NCBI GenBank assembly: GCA_942493105.1
Contig: OW818668.1
Coordinates: 540,001-572,000, forward strand
DNA length: 32,000 nucleotides
From: an uncultured Erysipelotrichaceae bacterium
GTDB taxonomy: Bacteria; Bacillota_I; Bacilli_A; Erysipelotrichales; Erysipelotrichaceae
Direction of reading: 5' to 3'
Positions within the stretch are counted from its first letter, which is position 1; each line of letters starts with the position of its first letter. This document shows positions 5,309 to 17,439 of the stretch, piece by piece. The notes beneath the pieces are model-generated. The model searched no databases and was not told where the DNA came from. It was given only the letters and a program-made list of their open reading frames with translations. The translations under genes and the position numbers were made by a program.

Positions 5309-6031
5309 TTACTTCTTTTGCTCTCTTTTGTTTTGAATGGATTTCAAAATTTCATCTAAATTTTCTTTAGTGATCTTTTCAGTAGAATTTTTTTCAAAAT
5401 CAATCAAAGCAGCACGATTCTCAATTTCTTCAACTCGAATTTGTGAATACAAAGATTCGAGGTCCCCATTTTCGATGATTTGATTAAATAGATTCCATGT
5501 TGATGATTTAACTCTATCAAGAGTGCCATACAGGATAAGCACAGCAGCTTTAATTTTTTCTAAGGTTAGCGGTTCATTTTGGTTTCTACTTTCATGCAGA
5601 ATTCCAACGATGTCTGAAATGTCGTTCTTATGCATTCTTCCTGCTACCAATTTCATGGCAACTAAAAACTCTGCCCGAATCGTTCTGACCGAAATTATAT
5701 TTAGATAGTCATTATAGTGTACCGAGTTTATTCTCAGTTGATTAGAATAAGATGAAGACTTCACAAAATCAGAGTTGAGCCAGTGAGGACTCAAATTATA
5801 CTTCTCTGCAACTACCTTAATAGCATCCTTTAAAACATCAGGTGCCAAAAACAAACCATCAACATCCGTCGTTGAAATTCTAAAACTATAGTTGAGCAGA
5901 ATGGCTGCCCCACCGATCAAAACAATTTCAAGATTGGATGCATTTTTCTTTGCTATCCGTTTATAAGTTTTGGCCAACTCATAAAAATACTTTTCAAGAT
6001 CTTCTTTGGTTATTTCTTTCTCAAATGACAT
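5309..6031 (-). CDS. Nucleotidyltransferase-fold protein, AbiEii/DUF1814-like (putative toxin of a type IV TA/Abi-like pair)
   Basis: 240 aa. LIGGAAILLNYSFRISTTDVDGLF fits the pol-beta/AbiEii NTase motif I (GG-x-A...R-x-T-x-D-x-D). MKLVAGRMHKNDISDIVGIL fits AbiEii motif III (K..A..R...KD..D). HWLNSDF resembles the conserved WLN segment. The ATG at 6031 overlaps the upstream gene's stop by 11 nt. Confidence 0.6.
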   Translation of the reverse strand: MSFEKEITKEDLEKYFYELAKTYKRIAKKNASNLEIVLIGGAAILLNYSFRISTTDVDGLFLAPDVLKDAIKVVAEKYNLSPHWLNSDFVKSSSYSNQLRINSVHYNDYLNIISVRTIRAEFLVAMKLVAGRMHKNDISDIVGILHESRNQNEPLTLEKIKAAVLILYGTLDRVKSSTWNLFNQIIENGDLESLYSQIRVEEIENRAALIDFEKNSTEKITKENLDEILKSIQNKREQKK

Positions 6032-6602
6032 TGCGAATCTCGTTTTCTACGATGTTGAATCGTTTAAATTCAGGAATCGAAGCTTGGTAATAATCAGCTA
6101 CGAGTTGTTTGTTTTGTTTAAACTCCTTAGCTACGATCAAACTTGCTGGATAAATGATTCTATTCAATTTTGATTTTCTTAAGTTTTCATATTTAGAATA
6201 GAGCGGAATATCATTTAAACGGCTCAGATAGTCCACCATAGCCAATGTGTAAAGTGCCTCTGGATACCATTTTCTTTCCATATAGGTGGATATGAGGTCG
6301 GACTTTAAAGTATTTTCAATAAAGGTCAAATCATCTGTCTCATGTATTCTATGTTTCATATTGCTTTTAAACGTTTCAAGATCTGTTCTGAAGGGTTCAT
6401 CATGCGTATTAGTGAACTCGATCAATGCCTCAACTGTCGTATTTAACGTTTTGGCAATCTTATATACAACTTCAGTCGATGACTTATTTAAACTCGTTTT
6501 CTCATTAAAAAGATCCGAGATTGTAGAATAAGGGATTTGAGTCAAATTTGAAAGTTGATACTTGGTTATATTCTTTTCTTCTAAAAGTGAATTGAGTTTC
6601 AT
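6021..6602 (-). CDS. XRE-family helix-turn-helix protein with an unrecognised ~125-aa C-terminal domain (putative antitoxin/autoregulator)
   Basis: 193 aa. The N-terminus (LLEEKNITKYQLSNLTQIPYSTISDLFNEKTSLNKSSTEVVYKIAKTLNTTVEALIEF) is a typical Cro/C1-type HTH. I do not recognise the C-terminal domain, and it has no HEPN Rx4-6H motif. AAGGAGG lies upstream of the ATG at 6602. Confidence 0.7.
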   Translation of the reverse strand: MKLNSLLEEKNITKYQLSNLTQIPYSTISDLFNEKTSLNKSSTEVVYKIAKTLNTTVEALIEFTNTHDEPFRTDLETFKSNMKHRIHETDDLTFIENTLKSDLISTYMERKWYPEALYTLAMVDYLSRLNDIPLYSKYENLRKSKLNRIIYPASLIVAKEFKQNKQLVADYYQASIPEFKRFNIVENEIRNVI

Positions 6603-6769: not shown

Positions 6770-7708
6770 TTAAATCAACTTCGCAAATCTTAAAGCAAAC
6801 AGGAAGATGAAGAAAGAGACACTGGTCAATAAGGTAGAGAATACAAGGAGTTGTGAAGCCAACTCATGATCATTATTGAATTGTCGTGCCATGGCATAAC
6901 TGGTAATCGCGGTTGGTGAACAAAGTAGCGTTACGATAACGATCAATTGTGCTCCTCTTAAACCAATCATAAAACCCAAAACCAAGAAAAGTGCCGGTAA
7001 AACTAAGAATTTCATAAAGATGGTCCAAAAGATATAGACCTTATTTTCAGCGAAATATTCGATCTTGAAACTGCCTCCCAAAACGATCAATGCGAAGGTC
7101 GTGGTCATGGATGAGATATCACTGAGGACTTTAGCGATAGGAAGTGGAAAACCAATCTTGAATACCGCAAAAAAGATCCCGAGCAATGATGCGATGATCA
7201 ATGGATTCTTTAGGATCGAAAGCACGACTTTACCTAGCTTTGGTTTTTCGCCTCCATAGAAAGATAAAATAACAACGGCTAGTAAATTATAAGTAGGAAC
7301 CATGAAGGAAGCCACAAACGCTACGATGGCTGCGCCTTGAGGTCCTACGACACTTACGGTGACAGGTAAACCAAACAACAGGTAATTGGCTCTAAAAGTC
7401 GCTTGGATGATGGCTCCAATTTTCTTCCTGTCTTTCACAAACATCGGGATGAAGATGACATAGGCAATGATGATGATAAATATCATCGATACAACAAATA
7501 GCATGAGCTTCAAATCAAAGAATTCACCTAGATTTGATTTATATACACTGTTGAAAAGTAAAATGGGCAATAAAAACTTTCCCACCATATCATTGGATAC
7601 AGATAAGAAATGTTCATCGACGGACTTTGTTTTCTTTAATAAAAAACCCAGAACCATGAAGATGATCAAAGGCAATACGATATTGATGGAGAAGATTAAA
7701 TCAGCCAT
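6770..7708 (-). CDS. AEC (auxin efflux carrier) family permease
   Basis: 312 aa, roughly 10 TM segments. The N-terminus (MADLIFSINIVLPLIIFMVLGFLLKK) and overall layout are typical of the AEC / malate-permease-like family. It lies 25 nt downstream of the dehydrogenase gene, so they are probably one operon. Confidence 0.8.
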   Translation of the reverse strand: MADLIFSINIVLPLIIFMVLGFLLKKTKSVDEHFLSVSNDMVGKFLLPILLFNSVYKSNLGEFFDLKLMLFVVSMIFIIIIAYVIFIPMFVKDRKKIGAIIQATFRANYLLFGLPVTVSVVGPQGAAIVAFVASFMVPTYNLLAVVILSFYGGEKPKLGKVVLSILKNPLIIASLLGIFFAVFKIGFPLPIAKVLSDISSMTTTFALIVLGGSFKIEYFAENKVYIFWTIFMKFLVLPALFLVLGFMIGLRGAQLIVIVTLLCSPTAITSYAMARQFNNDHELASQLLVFSTLLTSVSFFIFLFALRFAKLI

Positions 7709-7733
7709 AAGGAGTCTCGCTTTCTAAAGTTAC

Positions 7734-8618
7734 TTATTTCTTTGAAGCTTCCAGAGCTTCTTCATAGTGTTTGATCAAAGCTTGGGTCCCTAAGGTTTCA
7801 TAGCCTTCATCTAATAAATCTTGATACATCTTCAATACATTAAACAACATTGGGAATTGGGCACCTTGTCTTAGTATTTCTTCTTTCGCAATACCCATAT
7901 CTTTCACGAAATGTTTGATATAGAAACCTGGACGATAATCTTCTGCTAAGATTTTTGGAGCTGTGCTTTTTAAATGATAACTGGCTCCTGAGCCTAAAGA
8001 GATCGCCTCAACAACTTTAGCAGGATCTAGTCCTACAAGCTTCGCATAGACAATCGCTTCTGTACAAGCTGCCAGTGAGCCTGCTACAGCGATTTGATTG
8101 GCCATCTTTGTGTTTTGGCCACAACCTGCAGATCCCATGTAGAAAATACTTTTTCCCATCAGATCTAAACACGGTTTGATGGCTTCATAGGCACTTTGAT
8201 CTCCACCGACAACGATCAATAAGGTAGCGTTTTTAGCACCTGTTTCTCCACCTGATACTGGGGCATCCAAACATTGGACATTAAACTTCTTGCCTTCTTC
8301 ATAGATTTCTTGAGCCACTTGAGCAGAAGAAGTCGTCATATCGATCGTGATCGTATTGGGTTTAACGTTTTGAAGGATACCTTGAGGCCCTAGATAAATG
8401 TCTTTGACATCTTGCGGACTACCGACCATGGTGAATACCGCATCTGCATCTTTGACAGCTTGAGCTGTAGAATCAGCCCACAAAGCCCCTGCATCGATCA
8501 AAGCTTGTGCTTTTTCTTTGGTTCTGGTCGTAATGGTCAATTCATAGCCGGCACTAAGCAAATGTCCTGCCATTTCTTTACCCATGATACCCGTCCCAAT
8601 CCAAGTTAATTTCTTCAT
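7734..8618 (-). CDS. NAD(P)-dependent beta-hydroxyacid dehydrogenase (3-hydroxyisobutyrate / tartronate-semialdehyde reductase family)
   Basis: The Rossmann motif WIGTGIMGKEMAGHL is at the N-terminus, and DAPVSGG and GxGQxxKxxNQ-like motifs are present. The ORF track extends to 8675, but the ATG at 8618 is preceded by AAAGGAG and gives the family-typical N-terminus. Confidence 0.85.
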   Translation of the reverse strand: MKKLTWIGTGIMGKEMAGHLLSAGYELTITTRTKEKAQALIDAGALWADSTAQAVKDADAVFTMVGSPQDVKDIYLGPQGILQNVKPNTITIDMTTSSAQVAQEIYEEGKKFNVQCLDAPVSGGETGAKNATLLIVVGGDQSAYEAIKPCLDLMGKSIFYMGSAGCGQNTKMANQIAVAGSLAACTEAIVYAKLVGLDPAKVVEAISLGSGASYHLKSTAPKILAEDYRPGFYIKHFVKDMGIAKEEILRQGAQFPMLFNVLKMYQDLLDEGYETLGTQALIKHYEEALEASKK

Positions 8619-8653
8619 TGTGGCTCCTTTATTTAAGTTTTTTTCTATTCTGT

Positions 8654-8667
8654 GATGTATATACATC
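8654..8667. promoter_or_regulatory. Perfect 14-bp palindrome GATGTATATACATC in the divergent promoter region
   Basis: Self-complementary on inspection. Located 36-49 nt upstream of the dehydrogenase start codon and about 200 nt upstream of the PRD regulator gene. Confidence 0.3.
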
Positions 8668-8869
8668 TTAAGCACCCATCATAGTTTATCACTAATTTTA
8701 CGTTAGGTCGATGCTCACTATACAACTTCAACACTCTAGAGTAAAGCCTGATTTTGCACTAGCGATGGTGAACTTAAACACCTTCATAGAATTGATGTTT
8801 TGTTTGAATAAGCATGGGTAGTCAACTACAATAAAGTCGAACGCCATAAAAATCTTGACAGGAGACGCC

Positions 8870-10876
8870 GTGAGTAACTATAAATATCGTCAACATCAGA
8901 TCCTAAACTTCTTGATTAAACAAAATGCACCAGTCAGCAGCGAGTACTTATCTAAAGCCATGGCTATTTCATCTAAGACCATCAAGAAGGATATGAGTGA
9001 GATCTCTGCTGCTTTGAGATCCAACGGAGCTGTGATCCAATCTAAAACTGGTGTGGGTTATTTTTTGACCATCAGTGATCCGGAAGCATTTGGCCGTTTC
9101 ACCAACTTTGCGAAACCAGAACTATCCACTTCAAACAATACCCCATTCTTCTTTCAACGCTGTCAATACATCATTCGACGTTTGATTGCAGAACAACGCT
9201 ACATCAAAATCAATGATTTAGCAGATGAACTTTATACTTCACGTACAACGATCACCAATGATATGAAACATGTGAAGAAGATCTTGGAAGAATTTGACAT
9301 ACGGATTGAACAAAAACCCAATCATGGTTTATTAGCCATCGGTAGTGAACGTCATTTCAGAATGTGTTTGATCGATCAGTTTACTCATTTTGAGAATAAT
9401 GATCTGTTTGTAGAAGAGACCAGCTTTAGTCAGCTCTTTGCGATAAGTCCACAAACCTTTGATCAGATTGAACAAGTCATACTGGATGCCCAAAACTTCT
9501 TTGCCCCAGTTGAGATCCCTTATCAAAACATCAAGAAACTGGTTCGTTTGATCATCTTATGCAGTCGTAGAAATAAACATGACCTTGCCTCTTCTTTTAA
9601 TGAAGATGAGACTGTTTATTTGATGAAGCGCAGTTCTTATCAAGTTGCCAAATACATTTGTAATGAAACGGCACCTTACCTTGATCAAGCACTTACCTTC
9701 CACGATTCACTTTTGATCAGTATCTATGTGGGATGCTATCGTAACTTCAGTTCAGTTGAAAGCATCAAAGATACACGTCGTTTTTTAGAATACCATCATT
9801 TAGCAGAAGACATCATTAAACATCTTAGTGATCTTAATGATTTCCTATATATGAAATATGATGCTTCATTAGCGAATAATTTGGCACTGCATTTCTTTCC
9901 AATGATGCAAAGAGTCAACCATAAAGTAAGATTTGACAATATTCCCATTCAACACATCAAACAAAGCAGTCCAACAGCTGTAGAACTGGCGATACAAACA
10001 GCCACTTATCTTAAGCAAACCAGAAACCTTGATTTAAATGAGAACGAGATTTGTTTCTTATCTTTGGTTTTCTATCCGATTTTTGGTAGATATAGTGCCA
10101 AACTTCATCGTAGAAACATCATCATCGTCTCCAGCATTAACAAATGTACAGGAAATATTATTGGAGAACGTCTAAGAAGAAATTTCTCTGACTACATCGA
10201 TCAAATTACTTTACTAGATGTCTATGAACTCAAGCATTTTGATTTCAGTGCTTATGATTTGATCTTCACAGATCTCTTACCTAAAACATTGATTCCAACA
10301 CCTATTCCCATCATTCATATCAGTCCCTTCTTTAATACTTCATCCAAAGATGATATTAAGAACATCTTGATGTTGAATCATTCTAATTTTGAAAGTATGA
10401 TTCTTAACTTTAAAAAAGAGTACTTCTTCAACAATGTTCATTTTAAGGAAAAAACAGAATTCTTCAGATTCTTTATCGATAAACTCAAAACAAAGCAAAC
10501 CTTACCCGATGGTTTCTTAGAAGATCTGATTCAAAGAGATCAGATGTGTTCTGCAGAAATCGGAAATAATGTTGCTTTGCTTAAGACACTTCATTCGTAT
10601 GATTTAGAGCCCTTTATTTCTGTCACGATTGTTGAGAAGCCTTTTATATGGCTTTATGAGAATGTTCAGATCATTATTGTTTGGCACTTGGGAAACCACA
10701 ATGAATTAAATGCTCGTTTTTTAGAAAGTGGTTTCTTTGGGAATGTTATTAAGTCGATCTTTGGTATACCCGATAAAACAATGGAACTGCTTCAAAATCC
10801 AAATTATGATCAATTGATCGAACTGATTCGCAAACAAGTCGACATCAAGAGTATCCAAGACCAACCACACTTATAA
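8870..10876 (+). CDS. PRD-domain transcriptional regulator of the MtlR/LicR/ManR type (HTH, Mga-like HTH, 2 PRDs, EIIB-like and EIIA-like domains)
   Basis: The ORF track starts at TTG 8855. GTG 8870 is preferred because GGAG lies 5 nt upstream. Two N-terminal HTH regions are present (SSEYLSKAMAISSKTIKKDMSEI and INDLADELYTSRTTITNDMKHV). PRD-like histidine motifs are present (LALHFFPMMQR). The size and C-terminal EIIB/EIIA-like regions fit the family, and there is no sigma-54 AAA+ module. Confidence 0.8.
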   Translation: MSNYKYRQHQILNFLIKQNAPVSSEYLSKAMAISSKTIKKDMSEISAALRSNGAVIQSKTGVGYFLTISDPEAFGRFTNFAKPELSTSNNTPFFFQRCQYIIRRLIAEQRYIKINDLADELYTSRTTITNDMKHVKKILEEFDIRIEQKPNHGLLAIGSERHFRMCLIDQFTHFENNDLFVEETSFSQLFAISPQTFDQIEQVILDAQNFFAPVEIPYQNIKKLVRLIILCSRRNKHDLASSFNEDETVYLMKRSSYQVAKYICNETAPYLDQALTFHDSLLISIYVGCYRNFSSVESIKDTRRFLEYHHLAEDIIKHLSDLNDFLYMKYDASLANNLALHFFPMMQRVNHKVRFDNIPIQHIKQSSPTAVELAIQTATYLKQTRNLDLNENEICFLSLVFYPIFGRYSAKLHRRNIIIVSSINKCTGNIIGERLRRNFSDYIDQITLLDVYELKHFDFSAYDLIFTDLLPKTLIPTPIPIIHISPFFNTSSKDDIKNILMLNHSNFESMILNFKKEYFFNNVHFKEKTEFFRFFIDKLKTKQTLPDGFLEDLIQRDQMCSAEIGNNVALLKTLHSYDLEPFISVTIVEKPFIWLYENVQIIIVWHLGNHNELNARFLESGFFGNVIKSIFGIPDKTMELLQNPNYDQLIELIRKQVDIKSIQDQPHL

Positions 10877-12088
10877 TCAAAGATAAGTAGCAAGCTGATC
10901 AATGACTTTTTCGATGACACCAACAGGCGTCTTTGTCGCATTGGCTTCATGACTTCCGGTTTTAAATTGATCGATTGAAATCAAATATCCTACCATTTCA
11001 TTGGCATAACCAAAGACCATACAACGAGGATTACTGGATTGATCGATGATTTTCTTACCTAAACAAGCGGATAATTCTCCTGGGATGATGACAAACTGAA
11101 CTTCACCTAAGGTATAAACAAAGATCTTGATCAAGAACTCTGTTTTACCTTGATGAAGCTTTCTTTCTAAACCAACTAAACCAGAATCAATCAAACGCAA
11201 ACGATCATTTGAAACAGGATGCTTTTTCTCTTCATTCATTTCAGCAATTCTTTTAGTTAGATCAGCAATATCTGGTTCATAGACAACTGGATATTCCAAT
11301 TTTGAAACTTTAAGTGAATCCAGGTTAAGTTTTACACCATCATTCATCTTTTCGATTTGAGCGAATATACCACTAACGGTTCTGTCTAATTCAACTTTAT
11401 CATTGCTTAAGCGATAGAGACGATTGGACATATCTCCACTAGCCCCTTGCATCATCAAAGGATATACGCCATATTTTTTGTGATAACGATGACGCAGATT
11501 CCCAAATAAGTCTCCACTCAAAGCTTCATTCTCATGATTCAAGATCGTAGAATGACAAGCCATATTGATTAAAGCAGATACTAATTTCTGATCTTTATCT
11601 CTAAACTCAATCACATGAACTCTTTTTTCTGAATAATCATCAAGGCTGTTTCGATTACTATAGAAGCCTTCGATCTGAGTTGTTTTATAAGTTGCTTCAA
11701 CCTCAACCAAATCATCGAAACAAGATAGTGCTGTATCTAAGATTTTTTGAGTCAAATAGATACGATAGGACAAGTCGAACTCAGGAAAGTTCCAGCGATT
11801 ATTGATGACAGGTCCGGAATGGGTATGACCTGAAGTCAAAACGATATTGTCTGGACTGATGGGCTTGATTTTTGAGATGGTGCTTTTGATGACTTCTGTC
11901 AACTCTTCATCGGTTCCAGATAGATCCATATTGATGATGAGCAACTTTTCATGGTTGATTTCAAGTAGAGTTGCCACCAACATCAAATCATCTAAGATCC
12001 CGTTGTTTTTTCGTTGACGTTGAATATAACCCGCCATATAAACTTGGGTTTGAGGATTGATACAGGTTGATTTTGATGAAAGACGCAT
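10877..12088 (-). CDS. Neutral/alkaline-ceramidase-fold Zn hydrolase, paralog B (substrate unknown)
   Basis: 403 aa. MAGY...GILDDL...GHTHSGP and CHSTILNHEN match the N-terminal ceramidase_alk-type pattern (metal-binding HxHxGP). It is a paralog of the upstream gene. No signal peptide. SD-like AAGGTGGA upstream. Confidence 0.7.
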   Translation of the reverse strand: MRLSSKSTCINPQTQVYMAGYIQRQRKNNGILDDLMLVATLLEINHEKLLIINMDLSGTDEELTEVIKSTISKIKPISPDNIVLTSGHTHSGPVINNRWNFPEFDLSYRIYLTQKILDTALSCFDDLVEVEATYKTTQIEGFYSNRNSLDDYSEKRVHVIEFRDKDQKLVSALINMACHSTILNHENEALSGDLFGNLRHRYHKKYGVYPLMMQGASGDMSNRLYRLSNDKVELDRTVSGIFAQIEKMNDGVKLNLDSLKVSKLEYPVVYEPDIADLTKRIAEMNEEKKHPVSNDRLRLIDSGLVGLERKLHQGKTEFLIKIFVYTLGEVQFVIIPGELSACLGKKIIDQSSNPRCMVFGYANEMVGYLISIDQFKTGSHEANATKTPVGVIEKVIDQLATYL

Positions 12089-12090
12089 GA

Positions 12091-13392
12091 TCAGTTTCCA
12101 CCTTGAATGGGCTTGTTGATCAGACTCAATAAATGCTTGGCTGTATCAACGATCTTATCGTGAGCATCTGATTTTAAAATCGTCATATTCAGTTCGTAGC
12201 ATTTGACCTGATATCCTTCTTTAGACACGATATAACCGATGGTATCGTTGGTATAGCCGCTTACGATCGTGTTTTTACATAAGGCCTTAATATCTCTTCC
12301 AATTTCCGCAAACGTATCACCAGGGATCCCAAACCATGTGCAAACCCCTAAATCTAACACTTGCATATGCGTATGAACTTGTTTGAAGTTGATGTTTTTC
12401 TTCATGATGGATTTACGGGTAATGCCTTGAAGCGTGACATAAGCTTTTCGAATATCACTAGCTGAGGCTTGTTTAGTCTTAAGGTCATCTAGGAGCGCTT
12501 GTTGCTGGGCAATACTTTGTTCATATTCTTCATCACTTAAGAAATCGATGACGTTAAAATCAATGTCTGATACTGCCCCATTGACTTTGATGTCAGATGT
12601 TGTTTCAATCGTTGTTAAAACACGAATGGTTTCCGCAACCAGTTTCTGTGCTAAGCGATCAGCTTCTTCATAAGTACTGGCTTTTTTAGTGTAACGGGTA
12701 CTGATGCTTCCTGCACAACCTTGGGCGAAAACGATCTCTACATTTGGATAATAAGCTTCCATATGTTTACGAAATGCCCCTGGATAATCCGCTGTAAACA
12801 AGAAATTTTCATGGTTGAGTACGGTTGGATGGGCTGTGTATTGACTAATTATGCCAACCAAATTGCCATCAAGATCATCAATCCTAATGATGTTGGCACT
12901 GTTGTCTGCATAGGTTGCCGGATCATTACGATTGGTGCTAAGTCCTACAACACTGCCACTTCCAAATCCAATCTTCGCATCTTTTAATTCACGGTTGGCC
13001 CATAAGATCCCACCTGCAATTTTTTGAATCAACATGTGATAATAAGCCTTATTGGTTTCAGGATCAGTTTGAATGGTTGGTAGATACTCAAAGGCATGAA
13101 GACGTGTTGCGTAAGGACCTGAATGCGTATGGGTTGCCTGAATCATGATATGGTCTGCTTTGATGTCAGATTGTGATGATACGATCTGTCTTACAGCATT
13201 GGTTAAATAAGCATCAACATTGATCACATCACAAATGACGATCGCGACTTTATTTTCTCCGTCATCTAACACAAAACACTTCGCACACAAATCATCATGA
13301 ATGCCTTCTGCCCCATGATCTCTTTCTGAATAACCAGCCATCTGCATACCTACGGCAGGCGTAATATCTACTGTTTTAATGGATGCTTTCAT
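12091..13392 (-). CDS. Neutral/alkaline-ceramidase-fold Zn hydrolase, paralog A (substrate unknown)
   Basis: 433 aa. VDITPAVGMQMAGYSERDHGAEGIHDDLCAKCFVLDDGENKVAIVICDV...ATHTHSGP and AHPTVLNHEN are typical of the neutral ceramidase N-terminal domain family. No signal peptide. Its start overlaps the upstream gene by 17 nt. Confidence 0.75.
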   Translation of the reverse strand: MKASIKTVDITPAVGMQMAGYSERDHGAEGIHDDLCAKCFVLDDGENKVAIVICDVINVDAYLTNAVRQIVSSQSDIKADHIMIQATHTHSGPYATRLHAFEYLPTIQTDPETNKAYYHMLIQKIAGGILWANRELKDAKIGFGSGSVVGLSTNRNDPATYADNSANIIRIDDLDGNLVGIISQYTAHPTVLNHENFLFTADYPGAFRKHMEAYYPNVEIVFAQGCAGSISTRYTKKASTYEEADRLAQKLVAETIRVLTTIETTSDIKVNGAVSDIDFNVIDFLSDEEYEQSIAQQQALLDDLKTKQASASDIRKAYVTLQGITRKSIMKKNINFKQVHTHMQVLDLGVCTWFGIPGDTFAEIGRDIKALCKNTIVSGYTNDTIGYIVSKEGYQVKCYELNMTILKSDAHDKIVDTAKHLLSLINKPIQGGN

Positions 13393-14407
13393 AATGTCCT
13401 TTCCGATTAAAATAATCTTGACTTGTTATAAGTATTTTATCATTTATACGCTTGATTTTATCGATCCCAAACGCATTGTCTATACAAGATATGATTTCAA
13501 ATTCAAGAAGATCTTTTCCACTTCCCCATCCCACAAGACATTGATCATTCGTTAAATACTTGACTACTTCTTTTTTCCAAATAGACAGATCTTTTTCGAT
13601 GCCCATTGAGGCTATTTGTATCTTTTCAGCCATTAATCCAATGTTGGTCAATCTCTGTTGAAGTTCAGTTGGATCTTGCGTATGAAGCAATGGTAAAGCT
13701 GTGGATCCGTTTTTAATGCCTGTCAATTTTTGTTGTTCTTTGTTGACCACATAAGGTGTATAGATCAAACCTTGCTGAATCAGATGATCGATGAATGATG
13801 ATCCGTAGATCTTCTCAATATGCTGACTTAACTCAGATAAAGTTACAGAAGTGTAGTGTTGGTATCGAACGTTATAACTAAGTTTACCGATGATCTCAAT
13901 GCTTGAAATACAATTCTCAGTGATGATCTCTCCTAAGTGTTCATAAAACAAAAGAACTACGATTTGATTTCTTTCTTCATCTTTATAAGCTGTTAATTTT
14001 TCACACACGACTTTACATTTGATCTTGTTTGTTTTCTTATCAAAGATTGGAAATATGATGACTTCAGTTCCGTTGATGGTTGTATTTCCAAGATTCAAAA
14101 TACCCGCTTTTGGAGTGCGGGTATAGTTGAATATCCAATGCTTTGTTAAAGAAGAAGGTGCCTTTTGAATAAAGATACGATAGGCAATCCTTAAGAAATC
14201 ATCAAACATCGGAAGTAGTTCCAAGACATATTGATCTTGGGATTTCCGACTGATCTCAAAGGTCACTTCTGGTAAGACTTGAATGAGTTGATTGATCATG
14301 AGCTGATTGACTTCACCATATTGGTTATTATCGATCATCTGTCGAATCATTGAATCATTTTTTTCAAACCATGTCCAGAAAAGGCTTGTTTTAGTATTCA
14401 GTGACAT
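13376..14407 (-). CDS. Hypothetical protein encoded inside the PTS operon (no recognisable family)
   Basis: 343-aa ORF with a strong SD (AAGGAGGTG) upstream of the ATG at 14407. It is tightly packed between the IID gene and the hydrolase gene. No TM helix, signal peptide or motif that I recognise. Confidence 0.7.
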   Translation of the reverse strand: MSLNTKTSLFWTWFEKNDSMIRQMIDNNQYGEVNQLMINQLIQVLPEVTFEISRKSQDQYVLELLPMFDDFLRIAYRIFIQKAPSSLTKHWIFNYTRTPKAGILNLGNTTINGTEVIIFPIFDKKTNKIKCKVVCEKLTAYKDEERNQIVVLLFYEHLGEIITENCISSIEIIGKLSYNVRYQHYTSVTLSELSQHIEKIYGSSFIDHLIQQGLIYTPYVVNKEQQKLTGIKNGSTALPLLHTQDPTELQQRLTNIGLMAEKIQIASMGIEKDLSIWKKEVVKYLTNDQCLVGWGSGKDLLEFEIISCIDNAFGIDKIKRINDKILITSQDYFNRKGHYESIH

Positions 14408-14430
14408 AAGACACCTCCTTGATTAAATCG

Positions 14431-15228
14431 TTAAGCTAAAACTTTGAAATAGGCTGCAATAACAGAAACGATGATGATGACCCAAACCATTTTGGTTGAT
14501 GTCATATTCTTTTTGCCTAAAGCCCAGTATGTTGAAATAACAGCCAACAATGGAAGCATATTAGGCATGATCTTATCGAAGATATCACTTAGTTTAGTTG
14601 TAGATTCCCCAATTTTAAAGACATAAGGAACAACTACTCTGACATTGGAAGCAATGAGTGCCCCAACAACGACCAAACCCATGACAGATGCTGCATCCGT
14701 TAAACTGTTTAATCTGCTTTGACTAGAGGTAATGAATTGTACCCCTTTGACATAAGCAATATCCCACATTTTAATACGGACCAAAAACATAATGGCTCCT
14801 ATAGCACCTGCTAAGAATACACCGGTATAATTGCCTTCAATGGCCATGTATGCAGCTAGTGCACCTAGTACGGTCTTGGGCAATACAAAGAAGATGGAGT
14901 CTCCTAAACCAGCAAATGGACCCATAAGCGAGGTTCTGATGGCTGATCCTGTTTCGATTGCATTTTCTCCGCCTGTTTCTTCAATGGCTAAAGCAGCACT
15001 TAAAATAATGTTACCCATCCAAGGTTGTGTATTAAAGAAACGGAAATGTGCTAATAAAGAAGCTCTTAAATCATCTGGTTTGTTGGCATAGATCTTTTCA
15101 AGGCAAGGACCAACAGCGTAAACAACGCTGGCAGACTGCATGGTTTCATAATTGAAACAGATCTGAGCTGAAGTCAACCAACGGTTTCTAGCATTATTTA
15201 CATCTTTTTTAGTTAGAATGTTACTCAT
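14431..15228 (-). CDS. PTS mannose/fructose/sorbose-family IID component
   Basis: 265 aa. The N-terminus (LTKKDVNNARNRWLTSAQICFNYETMQS) and membrane topology are typical of ManZ-like IID. Its start overlaps the IIC stop by 8 nt. Confidence 0.9.
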   Translation of the reverse strand: MSNILTKKDVNNARNRWLTSAQICFNYETMQSASVVYAVGPCLEKIYANKPDDLRASLLAHFRFFNTQPWMGNIILSAALAIEETGGENAIETGSAIRTSLMGPFAGLGDSIFFVLPKTVLGALAAYMAIEGNYTGVFLAGAIGAIMFLVRIKMWDIAYVKGVQFITSSQSRLNSLTDAASVMGLVVVGALIASNVRVVVPYVFKIGESTTKLSDIFDKIMPNMLPLLAVISTYWALGKKNMTSTKMVWVIIIVSVIAAYFKVLA

Positions 15229-16003
15229 CTTGATTGTCTCCTTTAACTGATGAACCAGAACTCAATTTAGCAAAACGTTCATTTTGACTATAAACAATGG
15301 CTGCTGCGACAAATCCAAGAATCGCAATACTCATAACAGACATCTTTAAGAATGAAACCAAAGTGAATCCGAAAACAGCATAAACATAGTATTTCTTGAT
15401 CGGCAAGAACTTAAGCAAGATTGCAAAACCAACAGCAGGCAGTAATCCACCAGCAACGACCAAACCTGTGCTTAGCCATTTTGGCATCGCAGCCAAGAGT
15501 TGGGTAATCAATTCTGAACCGGCCGTCATTGCGATAAGAACAACAACTGCACCTGCCAATACACGTGGGAAAGTACCAGCAAAAATCCAAGCATACATCC
15601 CCTTTAAGTTCAATTTTTCAGCATTGCCTTGAGCTTTATGCAAGAAGAATGAACCAAACATTTTTCCAAAAACATCCAATTGTACGCCTAAGGCAGCAAC
15701 AGGAATTCCAACTGCTAAACCAGAATCGATCCCACCACCTGAAACAGCTGAGAAAGCTACTCCGATCATGGCTCCTAAAGTATAGTTAGGAACAGAAGAT
15801 CCGCCATAACCCCCTACACCCAGTGACATCAATTCCATGGTTCCCCCAATCAATAAGCCAAGTGGAACGTTACCCATGATCAAACCGGCAACAAAGCCTG
15901 TGATCGTAGTTCTTCCATAAGGCAAGATTTGAGTATGATAGGTATCATATTGCATAACGATTGTAAACAAAGTCATACTGACAATTTCAAAAATTGAAAA
16001 CAT
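15221..16003 (-). CDS. PTS mannose/fructose/sorbose-family IIC component
   Basis: The ORF track extends to 16066, but the ATG at 16003 is preceded by AAGGAGGAG and gives the typical IIC N-terminus (MFSIFEIVSMTL...). Polytopic, glycine-rich membrane protein. Confidence 0.9.
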   Translation of the reverse strand: MFSIFEIVSMTLFTIVMQYDTYHTQILPYGRTTITGFVAGLIMGNVPLGLLIGGTMELMSLGVGGYGGSSVPNYTLGAMIGVAFSAVSGGGIDSGLAVGIPVAALGVQLDVFGKMFGSFFLHKAQGNAEKLNLKGMYAWIFAGTFPRVLAGAVVVLIAMTAGSELITQLLAAMPKWLSTGLVVAGGLLPAVGFAILLKFLPIKKYYVYAVFGFTLVSFLKMSVMSIAILGFVAAAIVYSQNERFAKLSSGSSVKGDNQDE

Positions 16004-16016
16004 AGTCTCTCCTCCT

Positions 16017-16508
16017 TTATTTCTTTTGTGCTTTGTGAAGCATATCCATAAAATCCTGCTGAGCATCTTGAGGAACCAACTGATTGATGATCTTAGTTCC
16101 CTTAGATGATAATTCTTCTAAAGCAGCTGTCTCTGCAGCATTCACAGAAACTGTTTTAGCCACTTTTAATCGATCGGCTGTATAAGTAATGTTACCCATA
16201 TATACCGCATCGACTAAAATCCCATTTCTTTGTAATTCCATAAACACTTCAGGTGTTTTTGCGATGGCGAATACCCTTTGTGTTTCATAATTACCAGCTT
16301 TGATTCCCACAACTGCTTTTTCAAGCGTCAATACTGATAAACTTAGTCCTGCAGGGCAAGCCATTCTCAGTGATGTTCTAACAAGATCACTGGCACTGGC
16401 TCCATCATCTATAACCATGATGCGAGTAGCTTGAAGCGAATTGGCCCAGTATCCCGCGACGATACCGTGGATCAAGCGATCATCTACCCTATAATTAACG
16501 ATTCCCAT
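16017..16508 (-). CDS. PTS mannose-family IIB component
   Basis: 163 aa. The N-terminal YRVDDRLIHGIV contains the phosphorylatable His of the IIB(Man) motif RxDxRLIHGQV. AAGGAGG lies upstream. Confidence 0.9.
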   Translation of the reverse strand: MGIVNYRVDDRLIHGIVAGYWANSLQATRIMVIDDGASASDLVRTSLRMACPAGLSLSVLTLEKAVVGIKAGNYETQRVFAIAKTPEVFMELQRNGILVDAVYMGNITYTADRLKVAKTVSVNAAETAALEELSSKGTKIINQLVPQDAQQDFMDMLHKAQKK

Positions 16509-16554
16509 ATTTATCCTCCTTATACTTCGGTCATGACTTCCGTCGGATAGCTCA

Positions 16555-16583
16555 ATTATAGGAAAAAGCCCTCTTGATGTAAA
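16555..16583 (-). promoter_or_regulatory. Sigma-A promoter TTTACA-17-TATAAT upstream of the IIB gene
   Basis: Minus strand reads TTTACA (16583-16578), a 17-nt spacer, then a perfect TATAAT (16560-16555). It lies about 47 nt upstream of the IIB ATG and downstream of the IIA terminator. Confidence 0.6.
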
Positions 16584-16625
16584 AACAGGAATGTTCTCTA
16601 TTGATAATGTATAGCGCTTTCATTT

Positions 16626-16648
16626 AAAAACAGGCTTATGCCTGTTTA
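16626..16648 (-). terminator. Rho-independent terminator immediately after the IIA gene
   Basis: Minus strand reads AAACAGGC-AUAA-GCCUGUUU followed by UUAAAUG (plus-strand arms at 16628-16635 and 16640-16647). The IIA stop codon (16646-16648) lies in the 5' arm. Confidence 0.55.
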
Positions 16649-17059
16649 TTCATCATCACTGTTTTTCTGTGCTTGATATCGATTGACTAAAACAAGTGAT
16701 TCTTTACTTTTATCGATCAATTCTGCCAATAAGTCTTCGTTTAAGTTCACATCTTGTGGTAAAACTGAAAGCTGTAGAACCATAGGTAAGTTAAATCCAG
16801 CGATCAAGTACGTTTTTGGGCGAGACATATATGGCATCATCTTCTGATTGACACTGCCTCCAAGCAAATCACTTAAGATCACCAACTCATCATCTTCATC
16901 AACTGTGGCCATGAATTGTTCGATCAATGTATCAACGGATACATCACTCATAAAAGCACTGATGGCTTTAAAAGGATTAAGTTCTCCTAAAAATAGATTC
17001 AAGGTATTGACCATGCCTTCAGCCAATCCACCGTGTGAAATAAGCAGATATTTTCTCAT
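16646..17059 (-). CDS. PTS mannose-family IIA component
   Basis: 137 aa. The N-terminal YLLISHGGLAEGM contains the IIA(Man) active-site His context. AAAGGAGAAG lies upstream. Confidence 0.85.
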   Translation of the reverse strand: MRKYLLISHGGLAEGMVNTLNLFLGELNPFKAISAFMSDVSVDTLIEQFMATVDEDDELVILSDLLGGSVNQKMMPYMSRPKTYLIAGFNLPMVLQLSVLPQDVNLNEDLLAELIDKSKESLVLVNRYQAQKNSDDE

Positions 17060-17208: not shown

Positions 17209-17240
17209 ATAAAAAACAAGACTTTGTTAGAGCCTTGTTT
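17209..17240 (-). terminator. Terminator candidate after the zinc-ribbon gene
   Basis: AACAAG (17215-17220) pairs with CTTGTT (17234-17239), with a 13-nt loop. On the minus strand it is followed by TTTTTT. The stem is short, so support is moderate. Confidence 0.4.
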
Positions 17241-17439
17241 ATTTTGCTTTTTTGGCTGCATCTTCAGCCAGTATCTTTATGATATGCGATCTTCTGTCTG
17301 AATCAGATAAATCATCCCATTTAATGTCCGTCAGTTTCAGTGAGATCATTTTCTCACCACATTCTGGACATAACGGTAAATCTTTAGGTTTTATTGCCCA
17401 TATCGTTTGGCAGTTTTTACAACCATACATGTCTTTCAT
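17239..17439 (-). CDS. Small zinc-ribbon protein (CxxC...CxxC), function unknown
   Basis: 66 aa. CKNCQTIWAIKPKDLPLCPECGEKM gives a four-Cys ribbon, followed by an acidic/basic helical tail. GAGGGA lies 5 nt upstream of the ATG. Confidence 0.6.
   Translation of the reverse strand: MKDMYGCKNCQTIWAIKPKDLPLCPECGEKMISLKLTDIKWDDLSDSDRRSHIIKILAEDAAKKAK

Follow-up and report, generated by a model that had tools for sequence, protein, structure and literature searches.

What does a bacterium gain from an operon in which the genes of a mannose-family phosphotransferase system (PTS) are followed by a gene for a protein of no known family and by two genes for hydrolases of the ceramidase fold? The question is raised by the minus strand of a 32,000-nucleotide stretch of DNA from an uncultured Erysipelotrichaceae bacterium (assembly GCA_942493105.1, contig OW818668.1, positions 540,001 to 572,000), which as a whole is called the window here. 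All coordinates are positions in the window, and L-numbers (L001, L002 and so on) denote related loci that were compared with it. The answer towards which we cautiously lean is that the operon is an inducible and self-contained catabolic module for an amide-bearing carbohydrate, most probably an amino sugar, of the N-acyl-hexosamine or muramyl type, that is N-acylated or conjugated through an amide. The PTS (subunits IIA, IIB, IIC and IID) would import and phosphorylate the substrate; a PRD/Mga-type activator would sense flux through the cognate enzyme II (EII) and switch on a transcript running from IIB to the last hydrolase gene; and the two hydrolases, cerA and cerB, as cytoplasmic zinc amidohydrolases built on the catalytic domain of neutral ceramidase, would hydrolyse the amide bond or bonds. 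The products would be a carboxylic acid or an amino acid together with an amino-sugar phosphate, the breakdown of which would be finished by housekeeping NagA, NagB and MurQ encoded elsewhere. The protein of no known family, unk343, would be another enzyme, or a substrate-handling protein, associated with the transporter.

Seven open reading frames occupy the minus strand from 10877 to 17059, in the order IIA, hairpin and promoter-like site, IIB-IIC-IID, unk343, cerA and cerB; this is the order given in an initial annotation of the same DNA, and all of its coordinates match. The features, including the regulator gene on the opposite strand, are as follows.

16646-17059, minus strand: PTS EIIA, mannose family (PF03610, 2.6e-16; His9 in LLISHGG)
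16626-16645, minus strand: terminator-like hairpin ACAGGC-ATAA-GCCTGT with T-run, directly 3′ of the IIA stop codon, read from the sequence
16555-16583, minus strand: promoter-like site TTTACA-17-TATAAT upstream of IIB (11/12 consensus)
16017-16508, minus strand: PTS EIIB, sorbose/mannose type (PF03830, 4e-38; RLIHG phospho-histidine motif)
15221-16003, minus strand: PTS EIIC, mannose family (PF03609, 1.2e-57; the longest open reading frame reaches 16066)
14431-15228, minus strand: PTS EIID, mannose family (PF03613, 1.6e-76)
13376-14407, minus strand: unk343, 343 residues (no Pfam match; 17-nucleotide overlap with cerA)
12091-13392, minus strand: cerA, ceramidase-fold hydrolase of 433 residues (PF04734, 7e-26, 91.3 bits)
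10877-12088, minus strand: cerB, ceramidase-fold hydrolase of 403 residues, a divergent paralog (PF04734, 6e-11, 42.1 bits)
8855-10876, plus strand: PRD regulator, 673 residues (HTH_11, Mga helix-turn-helix, PRD, PTS_EIIA_2)

The spacing between the genes is as close as had been described. IIB and IIC are 13 nucleotides apart if IIC is read from 16003, IIC and IID overlap by 8 nucleotides, a gap of 23 nucleotides separates IID from unk343, unk343 overlaps cerA by 17 nucleotides, and cerA and cerB are 2 nucleotides apart. The start of IIC was taken as the ATG at 16003 because AAGGAGGAG precedes it; the PF03609 match starts at residue 26 of the longer open reading frame. Strong Shine-Dalgarno sequences precede IIB (AAGGAGG), IIC (AAGGAGGAG), IID (AAAGGAG), unk343 (AAGGAGG) and cerB (AAGGTGG), and reading of the individual sites confirmed that the one preceding cerA (GGAAAGGA) is weaker. 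Since the genes either overlap or are separated by no more than 23 nucleotides, and since a consensus scan found no terminator-like site on the minus strand from the IIB promoter to the end of cerB, IIB-IIC-IID-unk343-cerA-cerB most likely form a single transcript. IIA, upstream of IIB, forms a transcription unit of its own.

The site at 16555-16583 is the top-scoring promoter-like site between 10600 and 17700, a region in which such sites are not enriched (12 found, 23 expected). The hairpin at 16626-16645 is absent from the list of the consensus scanner; a hairpin with a T-run likewise follows IIA in L001, L004 and L007, and boxes resembling -35 and -10 elements are found at the equivalent position in L001, L002 and L007. 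Upstream of the -35 box, the IIA-IIB spacers of the window, L001 and L007 have in common the motif GAAAGCGCT (in the window ATGAAAGCGCTATAC, 16609-16622, minus strand). This motif resembles a half-site of a catabolite-responsive element (cre box) for CcpA, but it does not fit the consensus even with one mismatch allowed, and matches to the cre consensus are not enriched in the window (3, against 3.2 expected), so that it was rejected as a cre box. An operator common to the two promoter regions was also rejected, as these have no convincing repeat in common. A further promoter-like sequence, TAGACA-16-TAAAAT (10/12), lies at 13455-13482 on the minus strand within the 3′ end of unk343, about 60 nucleotides before the start of cerA, and could be an internal promoter for cerA-cerB.

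The transporter itself is the most conventional part of the operon. IIA, IIB, IIC and IID match the Pfam families EIIA-man, PTSIIB_sorb, EII-Sor and EIID-AGA, all far above the cut-offs (E 3e-16 to 2e-76). IIA has the motif LLISH9GG and IIB the motif DDRLIH14G, whose histidines are the phosphorylation positions in these families. The mannose-family PTS therefore looks complete and, judged by these motifs, functional. For IIA, IIC and IID the nearest NCBIfam models are those for galactosamine (GalN) or N-acetylgalactosamine (GalNAc), and all of these matches are below cut-off: IIA is nearest to AgaF, IIC scores 135 against 300, and IID scores 155.9 against the 400 of the galactosamine IID model. 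No subunit reaches an NCBIfam equivalog cut-off for the specificity of the Aga (GalNAc/GalN) PTS, whether of AgaF, AgaW, AgaE or the galactosamine IIB, IIC and IID models.

The two hydrolases are homologues of the catalytic domain of neutral ceramidase but not ceramidases in the sense of that family. Both exceed the PF04734 gathering cut-off of 32.1 bits, with partial matches that cover positions 8-232 (cerA) and 13-98 (cerB) of the 509 in the profile. The cerA sequence on its own finds human neutral ceramidase (4WGK) at E 4e-15 and its Pseudomonas counterpart (2ZWS) at E 5e-12. With a profile built from the cerA clade, the values become 5e-26 and 1e-25, respectively, and both the N- and the C-terminal catalytic segments are aligned; cerB matches 4WGK weakly. 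The metal-site motif contexts attributed to both proteins are present (ATHTHSGP and AHPTVLNHEN in cerA, SGHTHSGP and CHSTILNHEN in cerB). When cerA is aligned with the human enzyme (in 4WGK, residue number equals chain index plus 98), H88 corresponds to H194, H90 to H196, R155 to R257, H188 to H303, S231 to S354, D359 to E540, Y387 to Y579, and Y399 to Y591. Of these, H194, H303, E540 and Y579 are said to be the zinc ligands in the human structure. A review of the structure (PMC6952831) gives H196, R257, Y579 and Y591 as the catalytic residues and S354 as the one that positions R257. All of the mapped positions are kept throughout the cerA clade. cerB keeps them except for the equivalent of Y591, which is His; among cerB-type proteins this position is His or Phe in some, and the remaining mapped positions are kept. 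It is from the conservation of these residues that amidase chemistry is inferred for the two proteins. cerA and cerB are only 27% identical and are thus ancient paralogs rather than the outcome of a recent tandem duplication.

Could they nevertheless be true ceramidases or other lipid-amide hydrolases, whose place beside a PTS is incidental or regulatory? Their sole characterised homologues are ceramidases and the catalytic residues are identical, yet this seems very improbable. Ser-x-Arg in cerA and cerB stands in place of the Ser-Pro-Asn of ceramidases, the stretch that joins the two conserved halves is shorter than its human counterpart by about 66 residues, and the proteins are some 250-350 residues shorter than ceramidases, ending at 433 and 403 residues without a Pfam match to the C-terminal ceramidase domain (PF17048). 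Against the NCBIfam neutral-ceramidase equivalog NF041649 (cut-off 1200 bits), cerA scores 54.9 bits and cerB has no match. No hydrophobic N-terminus or signal peptide was found in unk343, cerA or cerB by a crude check of 19-residue hydropathy, made without a formal predictor, in which the maxima of the three proteins are 1.24-1.67 (1.6-1.7 for the two hydrolases, whose N-termini are hydrophilic), compared with 2.2-2.4 for IIC and IID; the absence of signal peptides and transmembrane helices noted earlier is upheld to this extent. Being encoded beside a PTS and having no export signals, the enzymes would meet their substrate in the cytoplasm and in phosphorylated form. Translational coupling inside a PTS operon also speaks against a true ceramidase, as does the fact that a lipid is not deliverable by a PTS. 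Profile searches, which could have placed the hydrolases in a characterised sugar-phosphate enzyme family, put them in the ceramidase family and neither of them in any such other family. More than 2000 bacterial and archaeal proteins of about 430 residues, named for the ceramidase N-terminal domain, were among the search matches, and no characterised one was found among the nearest of these relatives.

Relatives of cerA with 36-55% identity are all encoded in mannose-family PTS operons: in 9/9 loci carrying a cerA-type gene of at least 36% identity, with the count confined to loci with enough flanking sequence, a mannose-family PTS is encoded on the same strand (the window, L001, L002, L003, L006, L007, L008, L059 and L061). 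The nearest cerA relatives are from metagenome-assembled genomes of Erysipelotrichaceae. The cerB-type relatives examined are likewise all PTS-linked (L001; L004, with three copies; L054/L055; L056/L057), and they are rare, with 19 matches in a k-mer search of a 5.8-billion-cluster collection. Linkage to a PTS has been kept across proteins that are 26-55% identical, a further point against lipid hydrolases in an incidental position. Among about 85 environmental cerA relatives of 30% identity or less, from Bryobacterales, Chloroflexi, Verrucomicrobia, Planctomycetes, Clostridia and others, none has a PTS gene nearby, and the neighbours of environmental ceramidase-like genes are heterogeneous (Transglut_core in 6/44, DegT in 3, GFO_IDH in 3). 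The arrangements in related loci include the following.

L001: IIA, IIB-IIC-IID, unk334, cerB-type gene (405 residues), cerA-type gene (432 residues), PRD regulator
L002 (identical with L005), Erysipelotrichaceae metagenome-assembled genome: PTS, single cerA-type gene, PRD regulator
L006 and L007: arrangement as in L002
L059: IIB-IIC-IID, unk341, cer436, IIA
L003, L008 and L061: type II operon layout

Two types of operon can be distinguished. In type I loci, which resemble the window, both the PTS (IID E<=1e-73) and the PRD/Mga regulator are orthologous to those of the window, and the accessory genes vary: unk, cerA, cerB and the gene for a Cof-type HAD phosphatase occur in different combinations. 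The sole accessory is cerA in L002, L006 and L007, a cerB-type gene in L054, and unk in L060. As the accessories occur in varying subsets and each also alone, each would act as an independent processing enzyme for the product of the PTS. Type II loci have a more distant PTS (IID about 1e-30), with a GntR/UTRA regulator in L003 and L061. Because the combination of genes recurs in independent and strongly diverged loci, it is not due to chance, and the co-occurrence of ceramidase-fold genes, unk, mannose-family PTS and PRD regulator, for which a neighbourhood comparison had been proposed as the check, was found repeatedly.

Several of these loci have features of their own. L004 (5175-12539) has three cerB-type copies, two of which are each preceded by an overlapping gene for a Cof-type HAD phosphatase, and L061 (7013-10948) has three cerA-type copies in tandem. 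On a 66-kb contig, L058 (8770-10934) contains, in this order, a 68-codon fragment of IID, an intact unk335 and a truncated cerA-type gene of 298 residues, with no other PTS gene within 9 kb of this remnant; it is a decayed copy of the module. L008 (6745-7347) and L056 (3769-4401) each encode, within their type II operons, a member of a second uncharacterised family of about 200-210 residues with a hydrophobic N-terminal segment and no Pfam match; identity between these two members is 31% (E 8e-35). In L054/L055, an NAD-dependent dehydrogenase, which differs from the dehydrogenase encoded near the operon in the window, is encoded downstream of the ceramidase-like gene.

The regulator encoded at 8855-10876, convergent with the operon, belongs to the module. 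HTH_11, Mga, PRD and PTS_EIIA_2 domains all score above the Pfam cut-offs, as in activators of the MtlR/LicR/ManR type, and translation likely starts at the GTG at 8870. The stop codons of the regulator on the plus strand and of cerB on the minus strand abut (TAA and TCA, 10874-10879), with 0 nucleotides between them. Since there is no intergenic base for a terminator, the two transcripts must overlap or end within each other's coding sequence. Orthologous regulators adjoin the module in L001, L002, L004, L006, L007, L054, L060 and L109; in L001 and L002 they are convergent with a spacer, and in L004, L007, L060 and L109 they are co-directional.

What, then, is the protein encoded between the transporter and the hydrolases? 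unk343 has no match in Pfam, in NCBIfam, in the PADLOC models or among the protein sequences of the PDB, and with no PADLOC match a role in defence was ruled out. A k-mer homology search returned only unk343 itself, and alignment scans of genomes and metagenomes returned no match. Relatives came to light when 1.84 billion representatives were searched exhaustively with HMMER: 49 reach E<=1e-3, and 4 of these are close (29-38% identity). AlphaFold, when given an alignment of 27 sequences, predicted a two-lobed alpha/beta protein with a predicted local distance difference test score (pLDDT) of 90.2 and a predicted template modelling (TM) score of 0.87; from the single sequence, the pLDDT was 35. 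The former model gave 0 Foldseek matches at E<=1e-3 in PDB and BFVD (TM score below 0.2, ribosomal or viral noise), which bears out the earlier description of a protein of no known family. Profile-profile comparison found the unk family to be unrelated to the cerA clade and to the 210-residue protein of L056. Its conserved positions include F10, F14, W91, G159-E160, R228, D230, G234, Y302 and D304, and its N-terminal lobe (residues 1 to about 175) recurs in longer proteins, where its fusion partners are TPR repeats and, once, DUF4261.

In 6/8 loci with context, the unk343 family is encoded directly after IID; relatives are directly 3′ of IID in L001, L004, L059, L060 and L109. This fixed place, the occurrence of unk as sole accessory in L060, and the polar residues that the family conserves suggest that unk343 takes part in catalysis or in handling of the substrate. 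The same position can be read differently. A small gene, manO, comes after IID in some mannose-family PTS operons, and unk343 could by analogy be a non-enzymatic accessory or regulatory partner of the transporter, with cerB a non-catalytic partner of cerA. The L060 relative, which stands with the PTS and regulator and has no hydrolase beside it, would fit such a role, as would the fusion of the N-terminal domain to TPR repeats in distant proteins, which is typical of binding modules, and the loss of the tyrosine equivalent to Y591 from cerB-type proteins. However, E160, R228, D230, Y302 and D304 are polar residues that are invariant or nearly so in the unk family, as in an active or ligand-binding site; a cerB-type gene stands alone with the PTS in L054 and its product is thus no mere partner of cerA; and cerB keeps all metal-binding and general-base residues. 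Non-enzymatic partners are for these reasons unlikely.

The nature of the substrate is suggested by the type II operons. In L008, two NagA proteins score 309 and 300 bits against the NCBIfam equivalog cut-off of 225.65. L056 encodes MurQ (372 bits, cut-off 302) and a NagA-like protein just under the cut-off, and in L056/L057 the ceramidase-like gene lies between the NagA-like gene and MurQ, with a Cof phosphatase present. L003 and L061 encode NanE and a hexapeptide acetyltransferase similar to GlmU/NeuD, and L003 also PIG-L and DUF6282 proteins. SIS proteins of the PRK02947 type (SIS_2) are present in type II operons too. The gene for a Cof-type sugar phosphatase overlaps a ceramidase-like gene in five cases (L003, L008, L061 and, twice, the type I locus L004). 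What the type II operons encode, together with the weak affinity that the window PTS subunits show to GalN/GalNAc models and the coupling of HAD phosphatase to ceramidase-like genes, points to an amide-bearing amino sugar. The initial annotation had proposed that ceramidase-fold hydrolases process a PTS-delivered amide substrate; the related operons, with their NagA, MurQ, NanE, acetyltransferase and Cof proteins, support that proposal, and would narrow the class of substrate to N-acyl amino sugars or sugars of the muramyl type.

Within this class, two kinds of amide bond may be considered. In the first, cerA and cerB would be N-deacylases, non-orthologous analogues of NagA/AgaA, that strip the 2-N-acyl group from a hexosamine-6-phosphate ahead of NagB; possibly, the acyl group or the epimer is an unusual one. 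The residues for N-acyl amide hydrolysis are kept, and as there is no NagA-like enzyme in operons of the window type, the ceramidase-like enzyme would be their sole amide hydrolase. The resemblance of the PTS subunits to GalN/GalNAc models is in agreement with this, and the N-acetyltransferase and NanE of L003 and L061 would fit an exchange in which an odd acyl group is taken off and the sugar re-acetylated. It can also be pointed out that the 2-acylamino group of a hexosamine, between the hydroxylated C1 and C3, is analogous to the 2-acylamino-1,3-diol head group of ceramide, an analogy of our own. However, L008 and L056 have one or two NagA genes beside the ceramidase-like gene, so that a simple deacetylase would be redundant there, and no evidence identifies the acyl group. 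N-deacylation of this kind is a possibility that we regard as real, though on the whole doubtful.

In the second, the two enzymes would remove an amide-linked amino acid, peptide or aglycone, after which MurQ, NagA and NagB would act; examples would be cleavage of the lactyl-L-alanine amide of imported peptides of N-acetylmuramic acid, or of glycosyl-asparagine. The position of the ceramidase-like gene in L056/L057, between the NagA-like gene and a MurQ above its cut-off, with the Cof phosphatase nearby, favours this, and the NagA of L008 and L056 implies a different amide for the ceramidase-like enzyme. Several paralogs per operon (2 in the window, 3 in L004, 3 in L061) would suit multiple or variable amide bonds. 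Operons of the window type, on the other hand, have no peptidase, no enzyme of amino-acid metabolism and no MurQ, and the active site of ceramidase is made for an N-acyl amine rather than for a peptide. We know of no documented transport of muropeptides by a mannose-family PTS, which also counts against it. Cleavage of an amino acid, peptide or aglycone is rather unlikely.

As NagA is already present in type II operons, the bond cleaved there would be a second amide, for example the lactyl-alanine bond of a muramyl peptide, or that of an unusual N-acyl group for which the acetyltransferase afterwards substitutes another. A catabolic module for an amide-bearing amino sugar, the interpretation favoured here, has several observations to contend with. 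The window operon itself contains no amino-sugar enzyme, and the proposed class of substrate derives by extrapolation from operons at a greater distance, with a PTS related to that of the window only at about 1e-30. Where NagA is present, a second deacetylase would be redundant, and the cleaved bond is thus not defined by its context. The heterogeneous neighbours of the wider family of short ceramidase-like proteins mean that the fold alone is no indicator of a sugar substrate. cerB-type proteins with His or Phe in place of the Y591-equivalent tyrosine may have altered activity or none. No catalytic signature is detectable in unk343, and among its relatives the one in L110 (a 4-kb contig) is encoded between folate genes and is not PTS-linked.

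The surroundings of the operon in the window add no further enzymes of the expected kind. Neither within the operon nor next to it did Pfam and NCBIfam searches of the window detect an isomerase, an SIS protein, a deacetylase, a kinase or an aldolase, in agreement with the earlier statement that sugar-phosphate enzymes are lacking at this locus. The neighbouring genes encode an ABC exporter pair, a DUF6036 and a helix-turn-helix protein, an AEC permease and a HIBADH-type dehydrogenase, small membrane proteins, and RmuC. The AEC-family (Mem_trans) permease and the dehydrogenase, which resembles HIBADH/tartronate-semialdehyde reductase (250 bits against the 341-bit cut-off of TIGR01505), are encoded at 6770-8675 on the minus strand, divergent from the PRD regulator; they were ruled out as members of the pathway, since they are not conserved beside the module elsewhere. 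At 5309-6602 on the minus strand, overlapping open reading frames encode a DUF6036 nucleotidyltransferase-like protein (240 residues) and a Cro/C1-type helix-turn-helix protein (193 residues), a pair that is unrelated to the PTS locus and may form a small accessory module, toxin-antitoxin-like or of another kind. Just upstream of IIA, at 17239-17439 on the minus strand, an open reading frame of 66 residues has two CxxC pairs (CKNC...CPEC), resembles a zinc ribbon, and is followed by a hairpin and T-run of its own (inverted repeat 17211-17243). In a collection of 15 billion proteins, unk343, cerA, cerB and two further proteins of the window are the sole members of their 90%-identity clusters, and the cluster of IID has one other sequence. 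The near-singleton status of these proteins, and the lack of the genome among the GTDB species representatives that were scanned, mark the source as a sparsely sampled lineage; its genome is low in GC and measures about 2.03 Mb.

How does the module compare with known systems? Neutral ceramidase (human ASAH2, 4WGK; Pseudomonas aeruginosa ceramidase, 2ZWS/2ZXC) has a homologous catalytic domain, with the HxH, Arg, His, Ser, acidic and Tyr positions in common; it is, however, a secreted or ecto-enzyme of 650-780 residues with a C-terminal Ig-like domain that hydrolyses lipids, whereas cerA and cerB have 400-430 residues and are encoded in a PTS operon as cytoplasmic proteins. The aga/nag operons (AgaVWEF/AgaBCD, AgaA/NagA, AgaS/NagB) likewise combine a mannose-family PTS with an amide hydrolase for the imported sugar phosphate, as is proposed for the window, and the type II relatives with their NagA, NanE and SIS proteins increase the likeness. 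The aga/nag deacetylase, however, is an amidohydrolase TIM barrel rather than a ceramidase fold, the regulator is a DeoR/GntR repressor rather than a PRD/Mga activator, and the window has no deaminase/isomerase, kinase or aldolase. Operons of the bgl/lic/cel type (EII, 6-phospho-beta-glucosidase, PRD regulator) follow the same logic as the minimal forms in L002, L006, L007 and L054, but there a glycoside is cut, the PTS is of the Glc/Lac family and the regulator is an antiterminator, whereas the module has a predicted amide cut, a mannose-family PTS and a DNA-binding activator.

The gfr operon of Enterococcus faecium encodes a mannose-family PTS for fructoselysine and glucoselysine together with SIS deglycases. 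It thus also takes up a nitrogen-conjugated sugar that is deconjugated by cytoplasmic enzymes, but it acts on Amadori (amine) linkages and is controlled by sigma-54/LevR, whereas the window has no SIS protein and has predicted zinc amidases. In the MurP-MurQ/MupG recycling of Firmicutes, a PTS-imported muramyl sugar is likewise handled as its 6-phosphate, and in L056/L057 a ceramidase-like gene stands beside MurQ and a NagA-like gene; MurP, however, is a PTS of the Glc family, and the window operon has neither MurQ nor MupG. We know of no route of peptidoglycan-sugar recycling that has a ceramidase-fold amidase. Control of a catabolic PTS operon by a PRD regulator is a familiar framework; the enzyme content found here is not. 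In the searchable library, no paper linking ceramidase-like proteins to a PTS was found, in accord with the earlier remark that no characterised pathway of such composition is known. On the larger proposition, that short cytoplasmic ceramidase-fold enzymes acting on amide-conjugated amino-sugar phosphates, together with the new-fold family of unk343 and a PTS with its PRD regulator, constitute an unrecognised pathway of Erysipelotrichaceae-like Bacillota, our judgement is nearly balanced and inclines slightly to doubt; candidate substrates for it include a muramyl-amino acid and a hexosamine with an unusual N-acyl group.

The module is rare, but its conservation is strongly supported, and a system of such small size lends itself to direct tests. 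If the proposed pathway exists, the fold of neutral ceramidase, known only from secreted lipid amidases, would extend to cytoplasmic carbohydrate metabolism. This would give a first functional handle on the family of ceramidase N-terminal-domain proteins of about 430 residues, a new specificity for the mannose-family PTS, and a compact, testable system for the unk343 family, which is without a known fold relative. If the substrate is an amide-conjugated amino sugar derived from the host, the diet or cell walls, the module would mark a nutrient niche of Erysipelotrichaceae-like bacteria.

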